Source of the DNA: Escherichia phage egaa
Sequence record: NC_049852.1
Strand: one strand, 5' to 3'
Length of the DNA: 51,643 bases
In this document: piece by piece, positions 7,993-19,986 of the stretch
Numbering within the stretch: position 1 is the stretch's first letter
How the letters are laid out: every line of letters starts with the position of its first letter
The notes under the pieces: model-generated
Seen by the model: the letters and a program-made list of their open reading frames with translations, nothing else
Database searches by the model: none
Told to the model about the DNA's origin: nothing
Program-made: the position numbers and the translations under genes

Positions 7993-8481
7993 TTACAGAT
8001 CCTTAATGCAATATTTAAATTCCACCGCGCGGCGGTTGCGCAGTCCTTTAGACGTTTCTTTCTTTCCTGTTTTTGGATTGGTGTATTTTGTCCATCTCCA
8101 TAACTGATCGCACGCTTCCATATAACGACCGTTATTAATCAGCTTAAGCATGGTTGAATTTCTAAAAGCTCCAGTTCCAGCATTGTATGTGAATGAATAC
8201 ATTGCTGCGCGCATTGTATCAGGAATGTCAACCTTTACACGCTTATCAACTTCATCCTTTGCGATTTTGATATGCTTCGCCAGTAGTGCATCGCACTCTC
8301 TTTGTGTGTACGTTTTGCCTTGTATTACGTCAGGGCCAGTTATTCCGGCGCAAACCGTCCATACCCCAGCAATATCTTTGTACGGCTTATGTTTTACTCC
8401 TTCTATTTCCTCCAGTAGCGGAGAAGTAAGGGCAAGAGCAACGCCAAAAGCCGCAGCGGTCACTCTTTGTTTTATACTCAT
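7993..8481 (-). CDS. endolysin, T4-lysozyme-like (GH24), probable SAR (signal-anchor-release) type
   Basis: Catalytic E-x8-D-x5-T triad ([16 protein letters not shown]); weakly hydrophobic Ala/Gly-rich N-terminus [18 protein letters not shown]. Confidence 0.8.
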
Positions 8482-14624: not shown

Positions 14625-15557
14625 ATGAATAACGAAAACTTTATGGTTTATCAAAAGGAAGATGTTCTCCCATATATGCAAGGATTGTGGCGTGAGGCGC
14701 TACAAAGTATTTGCGGTCTTCCAAATGAAGTTTTTAACGGCAAGCATCAATCTTGCCCCCACTGCGGCGGAAAGGATCGCTTCAGATGGACGGATAAACT
14801 TGGCGATAAAAAAGGCGATGGCGGTGCGATCTGCAACGTGTGCGGTAATGATACCGGAATTGGTTGGATCATGAAGCTAACCGGAGAACCTTACAGCGAA
14901 GTGATCAATATTTTGGGCCGTTTTCTTGGAAAAGTTCCGCAGGACTATAGAATAAAGGCAAATAAGCGAGTATCTCGTGATTCTGGTTATTCGTTTGGGA
15001 AACAGGCAAGCCATGAATGCTGCGAGCGCGTTATGTCAAAAACACTAAAATTTGATCGCACGCCGTTAAGCACATATGAAGGAATATACCCGCCTGAAGA
15101 TGGTCATTATGATTGCGGCGTAAAAGATGGTCGATACATTCACGCGTTACCATGTTACCTTGTGCATTCAGATGATATTGATGATGAAATGTGCAATGTG
15201 CTTTTCATTGATGAAGAAGGTAAACAGTCTTTTCTAGCAAAGGACTACACGCGCGGGTCGATTGTGAGAACAGGAAGCACAGATAAGACGATCTATCTTT
15301 GCGTTGACTGGATTGATGCGCAACATATTCACCTTGCAACTGGACAAGAGGTTTGGGCCTGTTTTGATGCAACTAACATTGAGATTGTGGCTTACAGGTA
15401 TAAAGGCAACAGAAGAATGCGAGTTGTCTGTAAGAGCACAGATCGTGACGCTATCATAGCTGCCGAGGAAAGAGGTCTTGAAATTATGATTCCGATTAAT
15501 GATAATTACAGGAAAGGGATAGAGAGGAAGGTTTACAAACCTGAATCTCTTCTCTAA
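14625..15557 (+). CDS. DNA primase (T7 gp4-like zinc ribbon)
   Basis: CPHCGGKDRFRW...CNVCGND zinc ribbon typical of phage primase N-termini; in-frame ATG at codon 6 with GAGGTG upstream (track start TTG). Confidence 0.7.
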   Translation: MNNENFMVYQKEDVLPYMQGLWREALQSICGLPNEVFNGKHQSCPHCGGKDRFRWTDKLGDKKGDGGAICNVCGNDTGIGWIMKLTGEPYSEVINILGRFLGKVPQDYRIKANKRVSRDSGYSFGKQASHECCERVMSKTLKFDRTPLSTYEGIYPPEDGHYDCGVKDGRYIHALPCYLVHSDDIDDEMCNVLFIDEEGKQSFLAKDYTRGSIVRTGSTDKTIYLCVDWIDAQHIHLATGQEVWACFDATNIEIVAYRYKGNRRMRVVCKSTDRDAIIAAEERGLEIMIPINDNYRKGIERKVYKPESLL

Positions 15558-15575
15558 ATGTCACTGCTACTTTTA

Positions 15576-15599
15576 CCCCGCATTGCGGGGTTTTTTTTT
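15576..15599 (+). terminator. intrinsic terminator after primase
   Basis: ccccgc-att-gcgggg followed by T9. Confidence 0.8.
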
Positions 15600-15656
15600 G
15601 CCTTAGCAAATGCTATTATCTGCATTGACATTAACATGCAACATGGGAGAAAACGC

Positions 15657-17984
15657 ATGGCAATTTACAGAACCGGACAGGCGTCAATGGACGCTCAAGG
15701 TTATATAACTGGATACGAAACGAAATGGCGAGAGCAACTAACGCTCATTCGCCCTGGTGCAACAATCTTTTTCATTGATGCACCATTTCAAGCGGCTGTG
15801 ATCAGTGAAGTTATCAGCGATACACAAATCCGCGCCATCACAACTGGCGGCGCTGAAATTGGGCGAAGCAACTACATTATTTTGCTGCATGACTCAATCA
15901 CTGTTGACGGCTTGGCGCAAGATGTTGCTGAAACGCTGCGTTACTATCAAAGTAAGGAAACGCAGATAGAGGAAGCAATTGAATTTTTCAAGAACTTTGA
16001 TCTGCAAAAGCTGATTGATTTACGTGATGAAACAGTGAGGAATGCAGTATCAGCCGCACAAAGCGAGCAAAACGCATTGCAGCAAGCAAACCGAGCCGAA
16101 ACGGAGGCTGACAGAGCGCATCAAGCGGTTGTAGGTTATCAGGGCTGGAAATACGAAAGAACTGTAAACGCTCCAGTGGGTGCGGAAGATGCAAAGTATT
16201 ACCCTGTGATCTTCCAAGAAAAAAACGTGGGTGATATGTCTCATTTAGGCGTTTTCTTCCAGATCTCAACTAGAAATATAACTGGTAATCATCCTTATAA
16301 TTCAGCGTCATTTGCTGGCTATGCTCGTACTTCTGGATGGAGTGACGGCGTTGATAGCGTTTATGGTAATTTCACTATCTATCAGAAAGATGAAAGAACT
16401 ATTGATTCTATTTTGATGCCAGCGAAAGCAACAGAAAAGGCGTTTGCAGTTTACATTCGCGGCGGCGCATTTCCTGTGAGAATTCACTGTGAAAGCAATA
16501 TTGATGTTGTTGTTCCAACATCAGATTATGCTCCAGATGGTTTTGTTGAAAACGCAACAGTGTTTAAGTTTGGCGCGACAGATCCGGGCGCTGAATGTAC
16601 AGAAGTAAGGGCAATGGTTTTAACTAACACAGGATTCTATGCGATTAATGATTATGTTATCCGCGATATTCTTTTGTTTAGGGATGGTCTTGGATTGGGT
16701 GAGAGACAAATACCAAGATTTTCCGATCTAGATCTTGTTCATCAATATTCTGGAGCTGATGAGCTTAGTGGGATCTTGAATTTACACGCAAAGGGTGATG
16801 ATGGTGTTTCTCGCGGTTATTCTCGCGTGTATGCTGAAAAGCAAACTGGATTATGGAAAACAACAATACATACAGCAAACAATGAAGGAGATAAACACGC
16901 ATACCTGCAATTTGATGAAGACTCAAATTTATCAGGTCTAAATTATGTTGAAATCAATGGGGCTGGTGGGCTTTACTCTAACGGGTGGATTACTGCAAAA
17001 CAGGCAATGCGAGTTGGCTGCGGAACTGCCGACGGAGGTAATAAAGATATTTACCTGACAAACGCAGCAGGAGATGGAGGCGCTTGGGGTTGGGTTAACC
17101 TCCTACAAGGTAACTGGCACAGTGGTTACTGGCAATTAGGTGCTGTAAGTGGTGATGCTGCAAATATAGCCCATACAAAACTACTGATTAATAATCAAGG
17201 GACTGACGCTAAAGAGTTTAGATTCCACAATGATTACGGCGGCTACGTGACGGCGCAACGTGGCTTTAATGGTCAGTGCATACAAGGCTCATGGGGGCTT
17301 GAATGGGATTTTATGGGTTCTCCTTTTCATGCCAACTCAGTACAAAACAATGATGGTGGTTGGAGTCCTATTGTTTCTGGTGGCTCTGTATCAACTGGCG
17401 GTTATTCTATGCGAGCTGGTTTTGGTGTGATATCAAACGGTAATGCCGCGTGGCCTGATGTAACGATAAAGTTAAATGGTGATGGTCGTTATCATCGCGC
17501 ATATAATTTTAGTTATTCTGGTAGCATTTATTCTTGGGGTAATGATCCGTGGGGTGGAAATTATGACTTCGCAAGAAATCCAACATCCGATCGTGATTTG
17601 AAACACGACATTAAGTATACAGACGGAAAGGAAAGCTACGATCGCGTAATGCAATGGTTGCCTGCCATGTTTAAATATAACGGATCTGATGTTCAACGTT
17701 TTGGCCTGATAGCTCAAGATCTGTTAAAAATCGATCCACAATATGTGAAACTCGTTCCAGGCTCACCGGTATTTGAGGATGTGATTGGAGTTGACGAAAA
17801 TGGTGAGGAATACATTGATCGTCAGATTGAAACTGACAGAAATGATGATACATTGGCGCTTGATAGCAACGTTATGCTAACTGATATGGCTTGCGCTATG
17901 GTTTACATGGGAGGAATGATCGAAAAACAGCAAAAGGAGATAGACGAATTAAAGGCGGCTGTTGCTGCACTGCTCAATAAATAA
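15657..17984 (+). CDS. side tail fiber protein with C-terminal intramolecular chaperone (peptidase S74-like) domain
   Basis: 775 aa from ATG with RBS GGGAGaaaacgcATG (track start lies within terminator); Gly-rich beta-rich body; C-terminal NPTSDRDLKHDIKYT...FGLIAQDLLKIDPQYVKL matches the S-D-x-x-L-K autoproteolytic chaperone signature. Confidence 0.7.
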   Translation: MAIYRTGQASMDAQGYITGYETKWREQLTLIRPGATIFFIDAPFQAAVISEVISDTQIRAITTGGAEIGRSNYIILLHDSITVDGLAQDVAETLRYYQSKETQIEEAIEFFKNFDLQKLIDLRDETVRNAVSAAQSEQNALQQANRAETEADRAHQAVVGYQGWKYERTVNAPVGAEDAKYYPVIFQEKNVGDMSHLGVFFQISTRNITGNHPYNSASFAGYARTSGWSDGVDSVYGNFTIYQKDERTIDSILMPAKATEKAFAVYIRGGAFPVRIHCESNIDVVVPTSDYAPDGFVENATVFKFGATDPGAECTEVRAMVLTNTGFYAINDYVIRDILLFRDGLGLGERQIPRFSDLDLVHQYSGADELSGILNLHAKGDDGVSRGYSRVYAEKQTGLWKTTIHTANNEGDKHAYLQFDEDSNLSGLNYVEINGAGGLYSNGWITAKQAMRVGCGTADGGNKDIYLTNAAGDGGAWGWVNLLQGNWHSGYWQLGAVSGDAANIAHTKLLINNQGTDAKEFRFHNDYGGYVTAQRGFNGQCIQGSWGLEWDFMGSPFHANSVQNNDGGWSPIVSGGSVSTGGYSMRAGFGVISNGNAAWPDVTIKLNGDGRYHRAYNFSYSGSIYSWGNDPWGGNYDFARNPTSDRDLKHDIKYTDGKESYDRVMQWLPAMFKYNGSDVQRFGLIAQDLLKIDPQYVKLVPGSPVFEDVIGVDENGEEYIDRQIETDRNDDTLALDSNVMLTDMACAMVYMGGMIEKQQKEIDELKAAVAALLNK

Positions 17985-18000
17985 CAATCTTTTTAACTCA

Positions 18001-18027
18001 AGCGCGGCTCCGGCTGCGCTTTTTTTC
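18001..18027 (+). terminator. intrinsic terminator after tail fiber gene
   Basis: agcgcggc-tccg-gctgcgct hairpin followed by T7. Confidence 0.65.
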
Positions 18028-18161
18028 GTCTTTATGCCAGTTGCTTACATATCGTTGACAAATGTTTTATATCTATTCCTGACAGTTAGGCGCATACTCT
18101 TTGTCGTAACATAAATGTTGCAAACTTTTTTTGTTTTTTTAACGTCAAAGAGGAATTTACT

Positions 18162-18863
18162 ATGTCAGATATGACTTTACTCCCTACTGGTGGTGGTTTT
18201 GGTGGCGAAGCTGGCGCGGCTGGTCTTGGTGGTGCTGTTGGCGGCCTGATTGGGTCATGGTTTGGTAACGGCTTTAATGGTCGTGGTGGTTATGGTGGTG
18301 ATGGTGCTGCTGTTGCTGTCGGTGCTAACGCTGTTCTTGATGGTATTAATAACATCCAGACAGGAGTAAACAACCTGGGGCTGCAAACTCTGCAAGGTCA
18401 AAACTCCACAAACCTTGCCGTTGAGCGCTCATCCGCATCAACCTTTAACGGAATTACCAGCCAGAATACGCAAAACCTGCTTGCATCGGTGCAAGGTTTC
18501 GCCGGACTGAATACCGCGATTGTTAGCGGTACTAACCAGACAGTTGCTGCGATTAATGCTGCTGATGTTAATGCTCTTGAGCGTTCCTATCAGGCACAGA
18601 TTGCAGCGGAGAGATGTTGCTGTGAGACTAACCTGAACATTGAGCGACAAGGTAACGCAACGCGAGATCTGATTCGTCAACAGTTCGCTGACTCTCAGGC
18701 TGTTCTGATTTGCGATATGAAAGCTCAGTTGCAGGAAGCGCGCTTTGCTCTTTCTCAGGCAAACCAGACCGCCGCACTGAATTGCAAAATCAACCAGGTG
18801 GAGCAATTGGTAAACTTCAAGTTGCCTACTCCTCAGACTCCGCCTACTGGCTGTTGCGGATGA
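18162..18863 (+). CDS. glycine-rich protein with Cys cluster (function unknown)
   Basis: N-terminus GGGFGGEAGAAGLGGAVGGLIGSWFGNGFNGRGGYGGDG; central CCCE and C-terminal PTGCCG; RBS aAGAGGAatttactATG. Confidence 0.65.
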   Translation: MSDMTLLPTGGGFGGEAGAAGLGGAVGGLIGSWFGNGFNGRGGYGGDGAAVAVGANAVLDGINNIQTGVNNLGLQTLQGQNSTNLAVERSSASTFNGITSQNTQNLLASVQGFAGLNTAIVSGTNQTVAAINAADVNALERSYQAQIAAERCCCETNLNIERQGNATRDLIRQQFADSQAVLICDMKAQLQEARFALSQANQTAALNCKINQVEQLVNFKLPTPQTPPTGCCG

Positions 18864-18912
18864 TAATAAATCAAGCGCCTTTCGGGGCGCTTTTCATCAA
18901 GAGGGCGAGACA

Positions 18913-19236
18913 ATGAAGATCCGTTATGCTGGCTATAAAATACCGCGCATTCATTTGCCGCGAGTTTCAATCGGGAGTGATGATCATGATGATGATTATG
19001 AGCGAGATAGCAAACATGATTCAGTTATGGGAAGTGTTATGGAAAGAACTAAGCACTATTCTAAGACCTGGGACGCGCACATTGACAAGCCAGGCGGCTT
19101 AATGTCGATTGTAGAAATGGAATACAAAGAGCTAATAACCGAAAAGGCAGACGGCTCGCATCATGGCATAGAGAAAGAATTAACCGATCTTGCCGCCGCT
19201 TGTATCTGCGCATTGCGTAAAATGAAATCAATGTAA
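18913..19236 (+). CDS. hypothetical protein (107 aa); C-terminal part weakly MazG-like
   Basis: ORF track; EMEYKELITEK...IEKELTDLAAACICAL resembles NTP-pyrophosphohydrolase helix pair (weak); start uncertain. Confidence 0.45.
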   Translation: MKIRYAGYKIPRIHLPRVSIGSDDHDDDYERDSKHDSVMGSVMERTKHYSKTWDAHIDKPGGLMSIVEMEYKELITEKADGSHHGIEKELTDLAAACICALRKMKSM

Positions 19237-19250
19237 AAAGGTTAACCGAT

Positions 19251-19742
19251 ATGCAAAACATTAATCAAAATGGCGCTGGCGTGACTCAATTCAACGGGAT
19301 GAGGCCGAAACAAATCATTGAGATTGGCGGCGTTAAATGGTCGTTACGGCGTGATGCTACTGATTCATCAATGGCGTTTCCTCACCAGAAAGTAAACTGG
19401 CTTAACGCTGGATGTGATCCGCTTGATGGCAACATTCATTATTGTTGGATAATGGGCGTAATTGCGCCAAATATGGGAACTCTTGAGCGTCCTGCTAATG
19501 TGATGTATATCGGTTTTCACCAACAGAGGATCATGATCGCACCAAATAGCGTTACTGTTGCAGATCTAGACAGGATGCATGTTTATGTAAGCGATAGTTC
19601 AAATTTTGTTGGTGAGTTTGTAGGAAAGTTTTTAGGAATTGAACCTGAAAAGCCAGTAGCAGAAAGGGAATCAATTAGCCCGTGGCCTGTAATGCCAGAA
19701 CAGCAATCAACTCCTGAAGGAAAAGCAAATGACGAAAAGTGA
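19251..19742 (+). CDS. hypothetical protein (163 aa)
   Basis: ORF track. Confidence 0.6.
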   Translation: MQNINQNGAGVTQFNGMRPKQIIEIGGVKWSLRRDATDSSMAFPHQKVNWLNAGCDPLDGNIHYCWIMGVIAPNMGTLERPANVMYIGFHQQRIMIAPNSVTVADLDRMHVYVSDSSNFVGEFVGKFLGIEPEKPVAERESISPWPVMPEQQSTPEGKANDEK

Positions 19743-19986
19743 AGGAATTGATCGGGTAGTTAAAGACCTGTCAGAGAGAGCGCACACAATAGCTGATGAA
19801 GGTCACTCACCAATATCAATCATGAAATCGGCAATGTCAGATTTTAACGGGCTTGGAAGTATGAGCGGAATGTTGTCAATAATGACCACTGGAAAACTTA
19901 ACACTCATCAAACTGAACTTGCAAAGAGAATTGCTGTTAAGGTGATTGCCGTGCTTGGGATGGCTGAAAGTGAAAAAGGGGCGTAA
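19729..19986 (+). CDS. hypothetical protein (85 aa)
   Basis: ORF track; overlaps upstream gene end. Confidence 0.55.
   Translation: MTKSEGIDRVVKDLSERAHTIADEGHSPISIMKSAMSDFNGLGSMSGMLSIMTTGKLNTHQTELAKRIAVKVIAVLGMAESEKGA

Follow-up and report, generated by a model that had tools for sequence, protein, structure and literature searches.

The question raised by this locus is whether a tail fibre gene and the gene directly behind it, which encodes a glycine-rich protein with clustered cysteines (the Gly/Cys protein), belong together. The window, that is the whole stretch of DNA that was analysed, comprises 51,643 nucleotides of Escherichia phage egaa (NC_049852.1) and is the genome of a Hanrivervirus-type phage (T1-like, Drexlerviridae). 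The lateral tail fibre locus of Drexlerviridae sits between conserved recombination and primase/helicase genes, and the N-terminal anchor is the only part kept among the fibres, the remainder being variable (Maffei et al. 2021, BASEL, PMC8594841). A sequence-only reading of the window had placed the fibre among replication genes, far from the other structural genes, and had by implication paired it with its glycine-rich neighbour. Here we show that the fibre is a standard Drexlerviridae lateral tail fibre with nothing new in it, and that the Gly/Cys gene is independent of the fibre, heads an accessory cassette of four genes that is horizontally mobile, and is dispensable on laboratory hosts. 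The reading as a whole, two independent modules lying side by side, is put forward tentatively and at rather less than an even chance.

Results

The fibre gene is a lateral tail fibre in its usual place

The fibre matches tail-fibre PHROGs (phrog_5481, E 2.4e-136) and is syntenic with the annotated lateral tail fibres of SFP17, JakobBernoulli and FritzSarasin. The mechanical open reading frame is longer (15558-17984, 808 aa). The start at 15657 is nevertheless the correct one: GGGAGA lies upstream of it, it is the annotated start in SFP17 and JakobBernoulli, the protein so started aligns from residue 1 with PDB 7vyv/7lzj, and the upstream terminator falls inside the 33 extra codons of the 808-aa frame. 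Two depolymerases of Klebsiella phages, 7vyv and 7lzj, align with the anchor residue for residue over their positions 1-156 (E 8e-45). With this conserved N-terminus, a variable remainder and a locus between primase and recombination genes, the fibre resembles those of the BASEL Drexlerviridae. The difference lies behind it, where Hanriverviruses add the four-gene cassette between fibre and ssb and Warwickviruses do not.

The fibre gene does lie within the replication block, between primase and SSB, with strong terminators on both sides (-12.5 kcal/mol, z -2.7, upstream; -16.5 kcal/mol, z -5.0, downstream; Table 1). It is also far from the other structural genes, as J, tape measure, protease and TerL are found on the minus strand at 24.4-43.3 kb. 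The position was described correctly; it is no oddity, this placement being the known norm for Drexlerviridae (PMC8594841).

Table 1. Features of the fibre locus and the adjoining cassette (window coordinates).
Feature	Coordinates	Strand	Basis
Intrinsic terminator between primase and fibre genes	15575..15591	+	7-bp stem (6 GC pairs), then T9
Lateral (side) tail fibre gene, 775 aa	15657..17984	+	phrog_5481 and synteny
N-terminal virion-attachment (anchor) domain, fibre aa 1-156	15657..16124	+	7vyv/7lzj alignment
S74 intramolecular chaperone domain, fibre aa 644-775	17586..17984	+	PF13884 match, alignments
Intrinsic terminator 3' of fibre gene	18000..18021	+	9-bp stem, then T7
Conserved element upstream of Gly/Cys gene	18093..18122	+	-10-like CATACT + inverted repeat
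Gly/Cys-rich protein gene, 233 aa, PHROG 9288, cassette gene 1	18162..18863	+	phrog_9288, conservation
Glycine zipper / putative membrane segment, aa 17-37	18210..18272	+	G23-x3-G27-x3-G31-x3-G35, then SWFGNG
Single continuous predicted alpha-helix, aa 54-220	18321..18821	+	AlphaFold2
Cys152-Cys153-Cys154 triplet	18615..18623	+	codons TGT TGC TGT
Cys231-Cys232 near C-terminus, after LPTPQTPPTG	18852..18857	+	homologue alignment
Terminator-like hairpin between Gly/Cys gene and next three genes	18873..18892	+	folding
Cassette gene 2, 107-aa MazG-like protein, acidic/His-rich N-terminal tail	18913..19236	+	family profile
Cassette gene 3, 163-aa protein, phrog_8329	19251..19742	+	GenBank phage records
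Cassette gene 4, 85-aa protein, phrog_7239	19729..19986	+	synteny

The S74 chaperone domain assigned to this side tail fibre from its C-terminal motifs, SDRDLK (644-649) and LIAQD (at 684), was borne out. Pfam PF13884 (Peptidase_S74) covers fibre residues 644-698 over its full length (profile 1-58 of 58, E 2.3e-8), with a score of 34.6 bits against a gathering cut-off of 22, and the fibre C-terminus can be aligned with those of 8hqz_d and S16 gp37 (6f45), both of S74 type. The catalytic dyad, Ser644 (codon 17586-17588) and Lys649 (codon 17601-17603), is intact on alignment: the lysine is invariant, the serine is found in each of the five sequences whose alignment covers the site, and the G-x-IAQ motif is conserved. 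The fibre of the sister phage JakobBernoulli is modelled by the BASEL authors as a coiled coil that carries an intramolecular chaperone domain and a tip like that of T5 (PMC11990801). The fibre of the window would be held to the tail by its N-terminal anchor, followed by a shaft and a receptor-binding tip, and the S74 chaperone would help the trimer to fold. By analogy with T5 pb1 and K1F endosialidase, the domain would then cut itself off, releasing a predicted 132-aa fragment and leaving an expected mature fibre of 643 aa. It shares with these two systems the C-terminal position in the fibre, the Ser-x4-Lys dyad, G-x-IAQ and a helical end; no notable difference was found in the domain, self-cleavage being a prediction only.

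The Gly/Cys gene is real and widely conserved

The glycine-rich gene of 233 codons, with its CCCE motif and PTGCCG C-terminus, is present as first described. The protein matches PHROG 9288 from end to end (E 1.3e-123, residues 1-233 on profile positions 1-234 of 234). Since the family counts 229 homologous protein clusters and 228 phage records, and dN/dS against SFP17 is low (about 0.002/0.139, i.e. about 0.014), the open reading frame is not a chance one; the gene is real, under strong purifying selection and widely conserved. It stands as a monocistronic unit, with a Shine-Dalgarno sequence of its own in front and, behind it, a terminator-like hairpin (-12.3 kcal/mol, z -3.4) that leads into UUUUCAUC. 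The annotation of Salmonella phage Sasha shows a terminator at the corresponding position. No match was obtained in Pfam, NCBIfam, PADLOC or PDB, nor any similarity to a PHROG annotated as structural, and a search of the literature for the family yielded no experiment, proteome or paper.

Upstream of the gene, an inverted repeat GTAAC-N6-GTTGC (18106-18122) lies 3' of a -10-like CATACT. The same arrangement is found about 50 nt 5' of the start codon in JLBYU09, JenP1, Sasha, eiAU-183 and a T5-like remnant, and the exact motif occurs once in the window. The hairpin that the repeat could form is weak (-4.7 kcal/mol) and covariation evidence is thin; the element may be an operator or a 5' stem-loop.

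Anatomy of the Gly/Cys protein

The protein starts with MSDMTLLPTGG and, read directly, carries no lipoprotein signal. Its first 56 residues are 37.5% glycine, and the N-terminal motif is conserved in the family. The zipper glycines are strongly kept in an alignment of 83 sequences (G27 in 70 of 70 and G31 in 69 of 71 ungapped sequences, G35 in 65 of 83). The enterobacterial segment is weakly hydrophobic (Kyte-Doolittle 1.2 over 17 residues) and predicted to be disordered (AlphaFold2 pLDDT below 50), and Pfam glycine-zipper matches, all sub-threshold, were seen in five members. The flank N-terminal to it is acidic, with zero to three Lys/Arg (of the 34 sequences examined, 19 have none and 30 no more than one), and the enterobacterial forms have an Arg after the segment; no positive charges fix the topology firmly.

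Behind the zipper, AlphaFold2 with 83 sequences predicts one uninterrupted helix (pLDDT 81-96 over residues 121-210), as it does with 20 sequences; if straight, it would measure about 25 nm. Over residues 57-150, hydrophobicity recurs with a period of 3.65. The protein is 31% Asn, Gln, Ser and Thr, and direct reading of the rod finds few charged residues. Such rods, poor in charge and rich in Asn, Gln, Ser and Thr, are commoner in extracytoplasmic or virion fibres than among cytoplasmic coiled coils. The cysteine triplet (CCCE = 152-155) is nearly invariant, with Cys in 78, 79 and 80 of the 83 members at the three positions, and the C-terminal pair is found in 17 of 20 close homologues.

Distant homologues occur in Clostridiales, Oscillospiraceae and Ruminococcus. 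Early in these proteins, at the N-terminal position equivalent to the zipper, stands a plain hydrophobic stretch, WWIIILFLFAF, and the C-terminal tails are of the CGCGC type. Their genes come after lysis genes or lie in a chromosomal region that also has genes for Fic, SLFN/AlbA-domain and ParE proteins, and not among structural genes.

The Gly/Cys gene heads a four-gene cassette

The order of the cassette is Gly/Cys protein, terminator, His-rich MazG-like protein, 163-aa protein and 85-aa protein. It is identical in Hanrivervirus, Seuratvirus, Nonagvirus, Eiauvirus and Sashavirus (with others, at least seven lineages), and is also that of the Yersinia phages P400 and PY100/YenM_22 and of Aeromonas phage phiWae15. 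The three partners lie 3' of the Gly/Cys gene in 30, 29 and 30 of 32 IMG/VR loci, respectively. In Hanrivervirus and Queuovirinae, the hypervariable fibre locus is bordered on its right by the cassette, which is conserved there.

The second gene begins 20-109 nt 3' of the Gly/Cys gene in 30 of these 32 loci. Its family profile matches PDB 2p06 (AF_0060) with E 7e-4 and PRA-PH weakly (E 0.016 in Pfam and 0.78 in PDB), all below the Pfam cut-offs; the alignment has a conserved ExxE...ExxD pattern and His-rich tails. The third gene is present in 138 phage records and spreads over the same genera as the Gly/Cys gene, T5-like phages excepted; searches of Pfam and PDB left it without a match, and none of its source names is informative. 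The fourth, which has no PDB match, has syntenic homologues in seven phage lineages and in 30 of the 32 IMG/VR loci.

Gly/Cys gene and fibre occur without each other

The implied functional pairing of fibre and neighbour did not hold: the gene travels with its downstream partners, and each of the two occurs without the other. FritzSarasin (Warwickvirus) carries an S74 fibre end that is 87% identical with no cassette beside it. Conversely, in Sashavirus and in the PY100-like and P400 phages the Gly/Cys gene has no fibre nearby, and in one Sasha-like locus it comes after a terminase-like open reading frame (TerL and homing endonuclease in the Sasha annotation). It also follows fibres that do not end in S74, namely gp37-like ones with a separate Tfa-like open reading frame and other fibre ends. 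Still, in at least 20 of 32 loci it stands 160-285 nt 3' of an S74 fibre end, co-oriented with late genes, and T5-like phages hold only decayed remnants of it, after an S74-ending fibre. Its sequence stays conserved while the fibre tips vary.

The gene has a TAA stop at codon 78 in JakobBernoulli. A deletion seen in KurtStettler alone among 44 related records has fused S74 domain and Gly/Cys protein in frame, and the scrambled 2019SD1 record contains a second such junction. Because the gene is disrupted or fused in isolates grown in the laboratory, it is dispensable on E. coli K-12. Its decay in the T5-like phages points the same way.

Discussion

We suggest, with some reserve and at slightly less than even odds, that the Gly/Cys protein is an accessory protein which is anchored in the membrane and oligomerises as a coiled coil, and not part of the virion fibre, a chaperone or a colicin-like toxin. 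In favour are the single predicted helix, the zipper and CCC kept across 83 diverse sequences, the clear hydrophobic segment of the clostridial homologues, the acidic N-flank and the monocistronic layout of the gene. That the protein inserts into the membrane is our inference, as are its topology, its oligomeric state, the part played by the thiols and its biological activity. The protein would be made in the infected cell and stay outside the virion. The zipper (about residues 17-37) would anchor it in the cytoplasmic membrane and drive homo-oligomerisation, the short acidic N-tail facing outward; on the cytoplasmic face, helix 54-220 would assemble into a rod of parallel coiled-coil type. 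The CCC triplet, and in many members the C-terminal CC, may form a thiol ring that staples the oligomer or binds metal. The pattern small-xxx-G-xxx-G-xxx-G packs homo-oligomeric membrane helices, and it is kept across the family as in the transmembrane glycine zippers of the VacA N-terminus, pinholin TMD2 and the Pfam Gly-zipper families. The family differs from these in that its Pfam matches are sub-threshold and the hydrophobicity of the enterobacterial forms is low; channel activity and membrane location are putative. Weak hydrophobicity, predicted disorder, sub-threshold zipper matches, the lack of topology-fixing positive charges, a polar rod, co-orientation with late genes and the frequent position behind an S74 fibre end speak against this reading. 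So do the cysteine clusters, since clusters beside a coiled coil are typical of disulfide-stapled fibres outside the cell, too.

A first rival is a virion component, a trimeric coiled-coil whisker or accessory fibre of about 25 nm attached by its Gly-rich end and stapled by interchain disulfide knots at CCC and the terminal CC that form after lysis. The long single helix, the charge-poor rod rich in Asn, Gln, Ser and Thr, the cysteine clusters within and after it, and a gene that shares its orientation with late genes and mostly closes the fibre locus all fit. The logic would be comparable to that of T4 fibritin or the GPCCG knot of collagen III, disulfide-stapled fibrous coiled coils whose long rod likewise ends in vicinal cysteines (here TGCCG). 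Dispensability is compatible with it, as non-essential phage whiskers are known. Sequence and fold, however, match neither protein, and the N-terminus of the Gly/Cys protein is hydrophobic. The clostridial homologues have a typical hydrophobic membrane-type segment and lie after lysis genes or near Fic, SLFN/AlbA-domain and ParE genes, not structural ones; the gene is tightly linked to that of a MazG-like enzyme and two small non-structural-looking genes; and no structural PHROG resembles it. We regard a whisker as unlikely. A helper specific to the fibre, i.e. a chaperone, cap or assembly factor acting with the S74 domain or its released fragment, appears more doubtful still. A function of this kind is what the GenBank label implies, 'putative lateral tail fiber chaperone'. 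The position of the gene directly after S74-ending fibres, in T5-like remnants too, the fusion in KurtStettler and the junction in 2019SD1 agree with it. The label, however, rests on the S74 half of that single fusion, the same S74 end works without the gene in Warwickvirus, and the gene follows non-S74 fibres that already have a Tfa-like open reading frame, occurs with no fibre nearby and is conserved despite changing tips. JakobBernoulli, with its nonsense allele, still depends on its fibre for infection of O16 hosts (PMC8594841). Chaperones of the Tfa, gp38 or gp57A type were considered and set aside: Pfam, annotated PHROGs, NCBIfam and PDB gave no match to them, and the gene does not co-occur obligately with a fibre.

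Two further proposals concern the envelope. Rz of lambda, an i-spanin, has a membrane segment, a helical coiled coil and cysteines, and the Gly/Cys protein shows a similar layout, its N-terminal hydrophobic segment being followed by a long helix with cysteines and a Pro-rich tail. It could be a spanin- or Lpp-type lysis or tethering protein, anchored in the inner membrane, with a periplasmic coiled coil whose length is close to the width of the periplasm, disulfides and a Pro-rich end at the outer membrane; its composition, too, resembles that of periplasmic coiled coils. Yet homologues exist in Clostridia, which are monoderm and have no outer membrane, the endolysin gene (7993-8481) is about 10 kb away, the gene is dispensable, and the N-flank lacks the positive charges expected of an N-in anchor, the charge bias pointing to a topology opposite to that of Rz. 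This makes an envelope-spanning protein very improbable. A spanin proper was rejected: the gene lies outside a lysis cassette, and no o-spanin, that is no lipoprotein partner gene beside it and no outer-membrane signal, was identified. The likeness to colicins and microcins noted by the sequence-only reading comes down to composition. A membrane-active toxin released at lysis, with the Gly-rich N-terminus as translocation or insertion domain, would account for the glycine content, the mild hydrophobicity and the sub-threshold zipper matches. Against it, no bacteriocin or colicin family matched the sequence, no receptor-binding or killing domain was identified in the cassette, the partner genes resemble no immunity or export family, and the conserved part is a helical rod and not a toxin domain. 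We give such a toxin almost no credence.

Returning to the membrane-anchored accessory protein, we raise a wider proposal, which we consider a good deal less likely to hold than not. PHROG 9288 and its relatives in Clostridia may define an undescribed class of phage membrane proteins, composed of a glycine-zipper or hydrophobic anchor, a coiled-coil rod of about 25 nm and an invariant triple-cysteine ring, which in enterobacterial phages would act in a mobile accessory system alongside two small proteins and a MazG-like enzyme rich in His. If true, phages of Gram-negative and Gram-positive hosts would have this membrane-protein class in common, and it may act as a thiol- or metal-gated membrane device in phage exclusion, takeover of the host envelope or the timing of lysis.

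Results

The lateral tail fibre and its setting

By DNA comparison, positions 15400-19300 are 95-96% identical to Shigella phage SFP17 and Escherichia phage vojen, which belong to Hanrivervirus (Drexlerviridae, Tempevirinae), and the first 25 kb of the window match G29-2, damhaus and JakobBernoulli at 94-96%. The position of the lateral tail fibre gene between primase and the SSB/recombination genes is the norm of the family. Maffei et al. 2021 (PMC8594841) described the same fibre locus with conserved flanks and a fibre gene conserved at its 5' end only. In the 2025 BASEL paper (PMC11990801) the model for the fibre of the sister phage JakobBernoulli combines a coiled coil, a T5-like tip and an intramolecular chaperone. 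The fibre is ordinary, and the fibre and its placement are already known.

Mechanical translation gives an ORF of 808 aa (15558-17984), whose 33 additional codons include a terminator. The true start is at 15657, since a GGGAGA ribosome-binding site precedes this position, the annotated starts of relatives agree and the protein aligns from residue 1 onward with the solved depolymerases 7vyv and 7lzj. The extension (15558-15656) was rejected as an artefact of an in-frame upstream ATG; it crosses the primase terminator.

The 775-aa product matches tail-fibre PHROGs. Residues 1-156 are the anchor domain common to Klebsiella phage depolymerases (E 8e-45), SDRDLK occupies residues 644-649 and LIAQD lies at 684. 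The Pfam profile Peptidase_S74 is matched over its entire length by residues 644-698, with a score above the Pfam cut-off, and in a PDB search this C-terminal chaperone stretch (S74) aligns to 8hqz, a T5-like L-shaped fibre, and to S16 gp37. Against five further S74 fibre ends, the Lys does not vary, every sequence covering the position has the Ser, and G-x-IAQ is conserved. Self-cleavage at Ser644 is predicted from the S74 family. The elements named by the sequence-only reading, i.e. S74 signatures, terminators and a 233-aa glycine-rich neighbour, are all present, and the Ser-Lys dyad, whose loss on alignment it had named as a refutation, is intact.

Features of the fibre locus and reference genes in the window
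Feature	Position	Remarks
Endolysin gene	7993-8481	
Terminator upstream of the fibre gene	15575-15591	-12.5 kcal/mol, strong
Lateral tail fibre gene	15657-17984	775 aa
Terminator 3' of the fibre gene	18000-18021	-16.5 kcal/mol, strong
-10-like CATACT, then inverted repeat GTAAC-N6-GTTGC	18093-18122	
Whole cassette (233, 107, 163, 85 aa)	18162-19986	internal terminator after first gene
Cassette gene 1, Gly/Cys gene	18162-18863	233 aa
Hairpin terminator 3' of the Gly/Cys gene	18873-18892	-12.3 kcal/mol, z -3.4
Cassette gene 2, MazG-like	18913-19236	107 aa
Cassette gene 3	19251-19742	163 aa
Cassette gene 4	19729-19986	85 aa
Main structural module (central tail fibre J, tape measure, head protease, TerL)	24.4-43.3 kb	minus strand

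The Gly/Cys gene is real and conserved

The neighbouring gene encodes a protein of 233 aa with 37.5% Gly in its first 56 residues, three consecutive cysteines at 152-154 (CCC) and a C-terminal PTGCCG. Its match to PHROG 9288 (unknown function) covers the full length; it is a further member of an existing uncharacterised PHROG found in hundreds of sequenced phages. The gene is real and conserved: it has its own Shine-Dalgarno sequence, comparison with SFP17 gives dN 0.002 and dS 0.139, it occurs in 228 GenBank phage records and homologues of its product form 229 clusters in a large protein collection. IMGVR_UViG_3300045988_017938 (51,859 bp) encodes a protein 100% identical to that of the window and probably represents this phage itself or a near-identical one. 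At the DNA level the region is matched by about 20 Campylobacter-labelled records, and in MG065669, MG065637, MG065675 and MG065636, recorded as 'Campylobacter phage A123/A15b/A118/A16a', Gly/Cys or 163-aa proteins are about 99% identical to those of the T1-like coliphage type; all these records are probably mislabelled or contaminant.

CATACT and the inverted repeat recur about 50 nt 5' of the Gly/Cys start in several unrelated genera (Hanrivervirus, Nonagvirus, Sashavirus, Eiauvirus), and also in the gene remnants of T5-like phages; PY100 and phiWae15 carry another palindrome at the equivalent place. As a phage-wide regulatory motif the repeat found no support, with one exact copy in the window and a count at one mismatch within chance. 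RNAalifold support for a hairpin was weak, from an alignment with one misaligned sequence, and the case for a functional hairpin or operator is thin.

Protein anatomy and distant relatives

AlphaFold2 predicted the same architecture from 20 and from 83 aligned sequences: a low-confidence stretch (residues 1-53), one unbroken helix from 54 to 220 (pLDDT 81-96 over 121-210) and a short Pro-rich tail. At about 25 nm if straight, a helix of this length implies that the real structure is an oligomeric coiled coil. Hydrophobicity averaged over the family shows a period of 3.65 residues over 57-150. Across the 83 sequences of the family alignment, most of the more distant of which are 22-40% identical to the Gly/Cys protein of the window, conservation covers an N-terminal M-x-D-M-x-L-x-P, a glycine zipper (small-xxx-G27-xxx-G31-xxx-G35) followed by SWFGNG, and the motifs QGFxGLN, LCDxK, SQxAQT and ATR. 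CCC is present in 78-80 of the 83 and R168 in 73.

Assemblies of Clostridiales, Oscillospiraceae and Ruminococcus supplied the most distant members, as did a phage contig encoding a CHAP endolysin and an r1t-type holin. These Clostridia-type homologues carry an unmistakably hydrophobic stretch between Trp and Gly at the equivalent N-terminal position, e.g. GAWWIIILFLFAFCGW, and terminate in CGCGC-type tails. Among 34 family sequences checked, the residues preceding the segment are acidic: 19 sequences lack Lys/Arg there and 30 have one at most. In enterobacterial forms an Arg directly follows the segment. Clostridia-type genomes have a different conserved set of neighbour genes (comparison records L005, 6980-10009; L019; L020, 5075-8619). 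Their run of neighbours includes a Cys-containing protein of about 125 aa, a Gly/Arg/Tyr-rich protein and a protein of 134-150 aa that contains a GCC motif. One MAG of this type has Fic, SLFN/AlbA-domain and ParE genes beside the small-gene run.

Searches of Pfam, NCBIfam and PADLOC with the Gly/Cys protein gave no match above threshold, a PDB sequence search gave noise only, and with Foldseek the model matched no structure in PDB or BFVD, as expected of a single helix. HMMER, run exhaustively against 1.84 billion representatives, recovered 123 relatives, none with an informative domain fusion; the sole long match, P0177 (1326 aa), was set aside as repetitive coiled-coil similarity. In cluster look-ups the only name was 'hypothetical protein', and the family was not found in the literature on T1-like, Hanrivervirus, Queuovirinae, 9NA-like and PY100 phages.

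The Gly/Cys gene belongs to a four-gene cassette

The Gly/Cys gene belongs to a cassette of four genes, not to the fibre. The identical order is found in KurtStettler (Seuratvirus), JenP1 (Nonagvirus), eiAU-183 (Eiauvirus), Sasha (Sashavirus), the Yersinia phages P400, YenM_22 and PY100 and Aeromonas phage phiWae15; it is kept across Hanrivervirus, Queuovirinae, Sashavirus, Eiauvirus, PY100-like and P400 Yersinia phages and one Aeromonas phage. Among 32 IMG/VR loci picked by Gly/Cys motifs alone, with an alignment of 20 sequences, the three partner genes lie immediately 3' of the Gly/Cys gene in 30, 29 and 30 loci, respectively. The 163-aa gene, present in 138 GenBank phages, has the same genus spread, the surplus of Gly/Cys matches being T5-like Salmonella phages. 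PDB and Pfam searches with the 163-aa and 85-aa proteins gave no match, and no informative source name was found. The 107-aa MazG-like protein has an acidic/His-rich N-terminal tail (HHHHHYHHGHH in the Sasha copy). This tail and the Cys clusters of the adjacent gene product hint that the cassette has a metal theme.

Cassette and fibre also occur separately. Sasha carries the cassette between its portal region and TerL plus a homing endonuclease. In P400 it adjoins head genes and in PY100 it sits among small early-type genes, with no fibre nearby in all three. FritzSarasin (Warwickvirus) has an S74 fibre end 87% identical to that of the window, followed directly by ssb without the cassette. In at least 20 of the 32 IMG/VR loci an S74-coding end lies 160-285 nt 5' of the Gly/Cys gene; where it is lacking, the position is taken by another type of fibre (among these, gp37-like HxH tips that have a 204-aa Tfa-like ORF of their own), by a fibre end of a different kind or, in one Sasha-like locus, by a terminase-like ORF. 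On the simplest reading, a hypervariable fibre locus has the cassette as its conserved right flank. This would explain why T5-like phages have a promoter-bearing, frameshifted Gly/Cys remnant directly after the fibre gene and no partner genes; the remnant looks like a passenger of fibre-module exchange.

Frameshifted remnants with the upstream element follow the lateral tail fibre gene in T5-like Salmonella phages (Epseptimavirus; L004, 5749-6339, and L022, 2746-3294). In JLBYU09 (L017, 887-1733) most of the fibre gene is deleted and the cassette is intact.

Lesions and database labels

In JakobBernoulli (Bas07; L002, 6663-7367) CAA has become TAA at codon 78 of the Gly/Cys gene, which is annotated as two genes, one of them 'sugar-binding'. 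In KurtStettler (Bas22; L003, 4981-6513) a deletion joins a truncated S74 in frame to Gly/Cys residue 17, and the product is annotated as a 'fibre chaperone'. Lost with the deletion are the terminal helix of S74, the promoter region and, from the start of the gene, 16 codons with the conserved N-terminal motif. Its junction occurs in one of 44 related records, and as a deletion product the fusion was dropped as a Rosetta-stone functional link. The lesion-bearing phages were all propagated on laboratory hosts, and the gene is therefore dispensable for plaque formation on those hosts. Support for the GenBank names 'putative lateral tail fiber chaperone' and 'putative sugar-binding protein' is limited to the fused S74 half.

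In Shigella phage 2019SD1 (NC_049820; L052, 4900-6100) the fibre end ...AALLNK is joined to TLLPTGGGF... of Gly/Cys. Past this second S74-Gly/Cys junction the frame breaks; the C-terminal part is found at another place, and both the 163-aa and the 85-aa gene are inverted, reflecting either a real rearrangement or an assembly problem. We gave this junction little weight because the region is scrambled and frameshifted.

Discussion

We tentatively read the Gly/Cys protein as a membrane-anchored, homo-oligomeric coiled-coil accessory protein of the infected cell. The reading draws on the conserved glycine zipper, the plain hydrophobic membrane-type segment of distant relatives, the charge bias, the Cys-rich relatives in monoderm Firmicutes (whose exported proteins generally avoid cysteine), the non-structural neighbourhoods and the link with the gene of a small MazG-like enzyme that has a His-rich tail. 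In this arrangement the rod and its thiol clusters would project into the cytoplasm, with the short acidic N-tail on the outer side. The CCC ring may staple the oligomer or bind metal, and exclusion, envelope takeover or lysis timing may be the protein's biological role. Our confidence stays below even because the enterobacterial segment is just mildly hydrophobic, Pfam glycine-zipper matches are sub-threshold and the charge-poor, Asn/Gln/Ser/Thr-rich rod with flanking cysteines also suits an extracellular, disulfide-stapled fibre. A virion whisker is the main alternative, if a rather improbable one. That the protein is a helper specific to the fibre is unlikely, considering the phages in which cassette or fibre occurs without the other. 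A spanin-like envelope spanner is very improbable: Clostridia homologues are hard to reconcile with it, the endolysin gene is distant and a lipoprotein partner was not identified. The likeness to colicins or microcins put forward in the sequence-only reading is one of composition only, and a toxin of this kind is hardly credible.

In the searchable literature, the glycine zipper, 25-nm helix, CCC, four-gene cassette, fibre-locus flank role and Clostridia relatives of the family were not found. The finding is a modest lead, not a surprise. For annotation, the labels 'tail fibre chaperone' and 'sugar-binding protein' in some GenBank records are unsuitable for the Gly/Cys neighbour, and in host-range engineering the gene should not travel as part of the fibre module. 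Phages of enterobacteria, Aeromonas and Edwardsiella, several of them used as models or in therapy, carry the cassette as a conserved mobile block in at least seven lineages. As conserved right-hand recombination flank of the hypervariable fibre locus, it offers part of the explanation for the transfer of fibre modules between phage families, and into T5-like phages as well.
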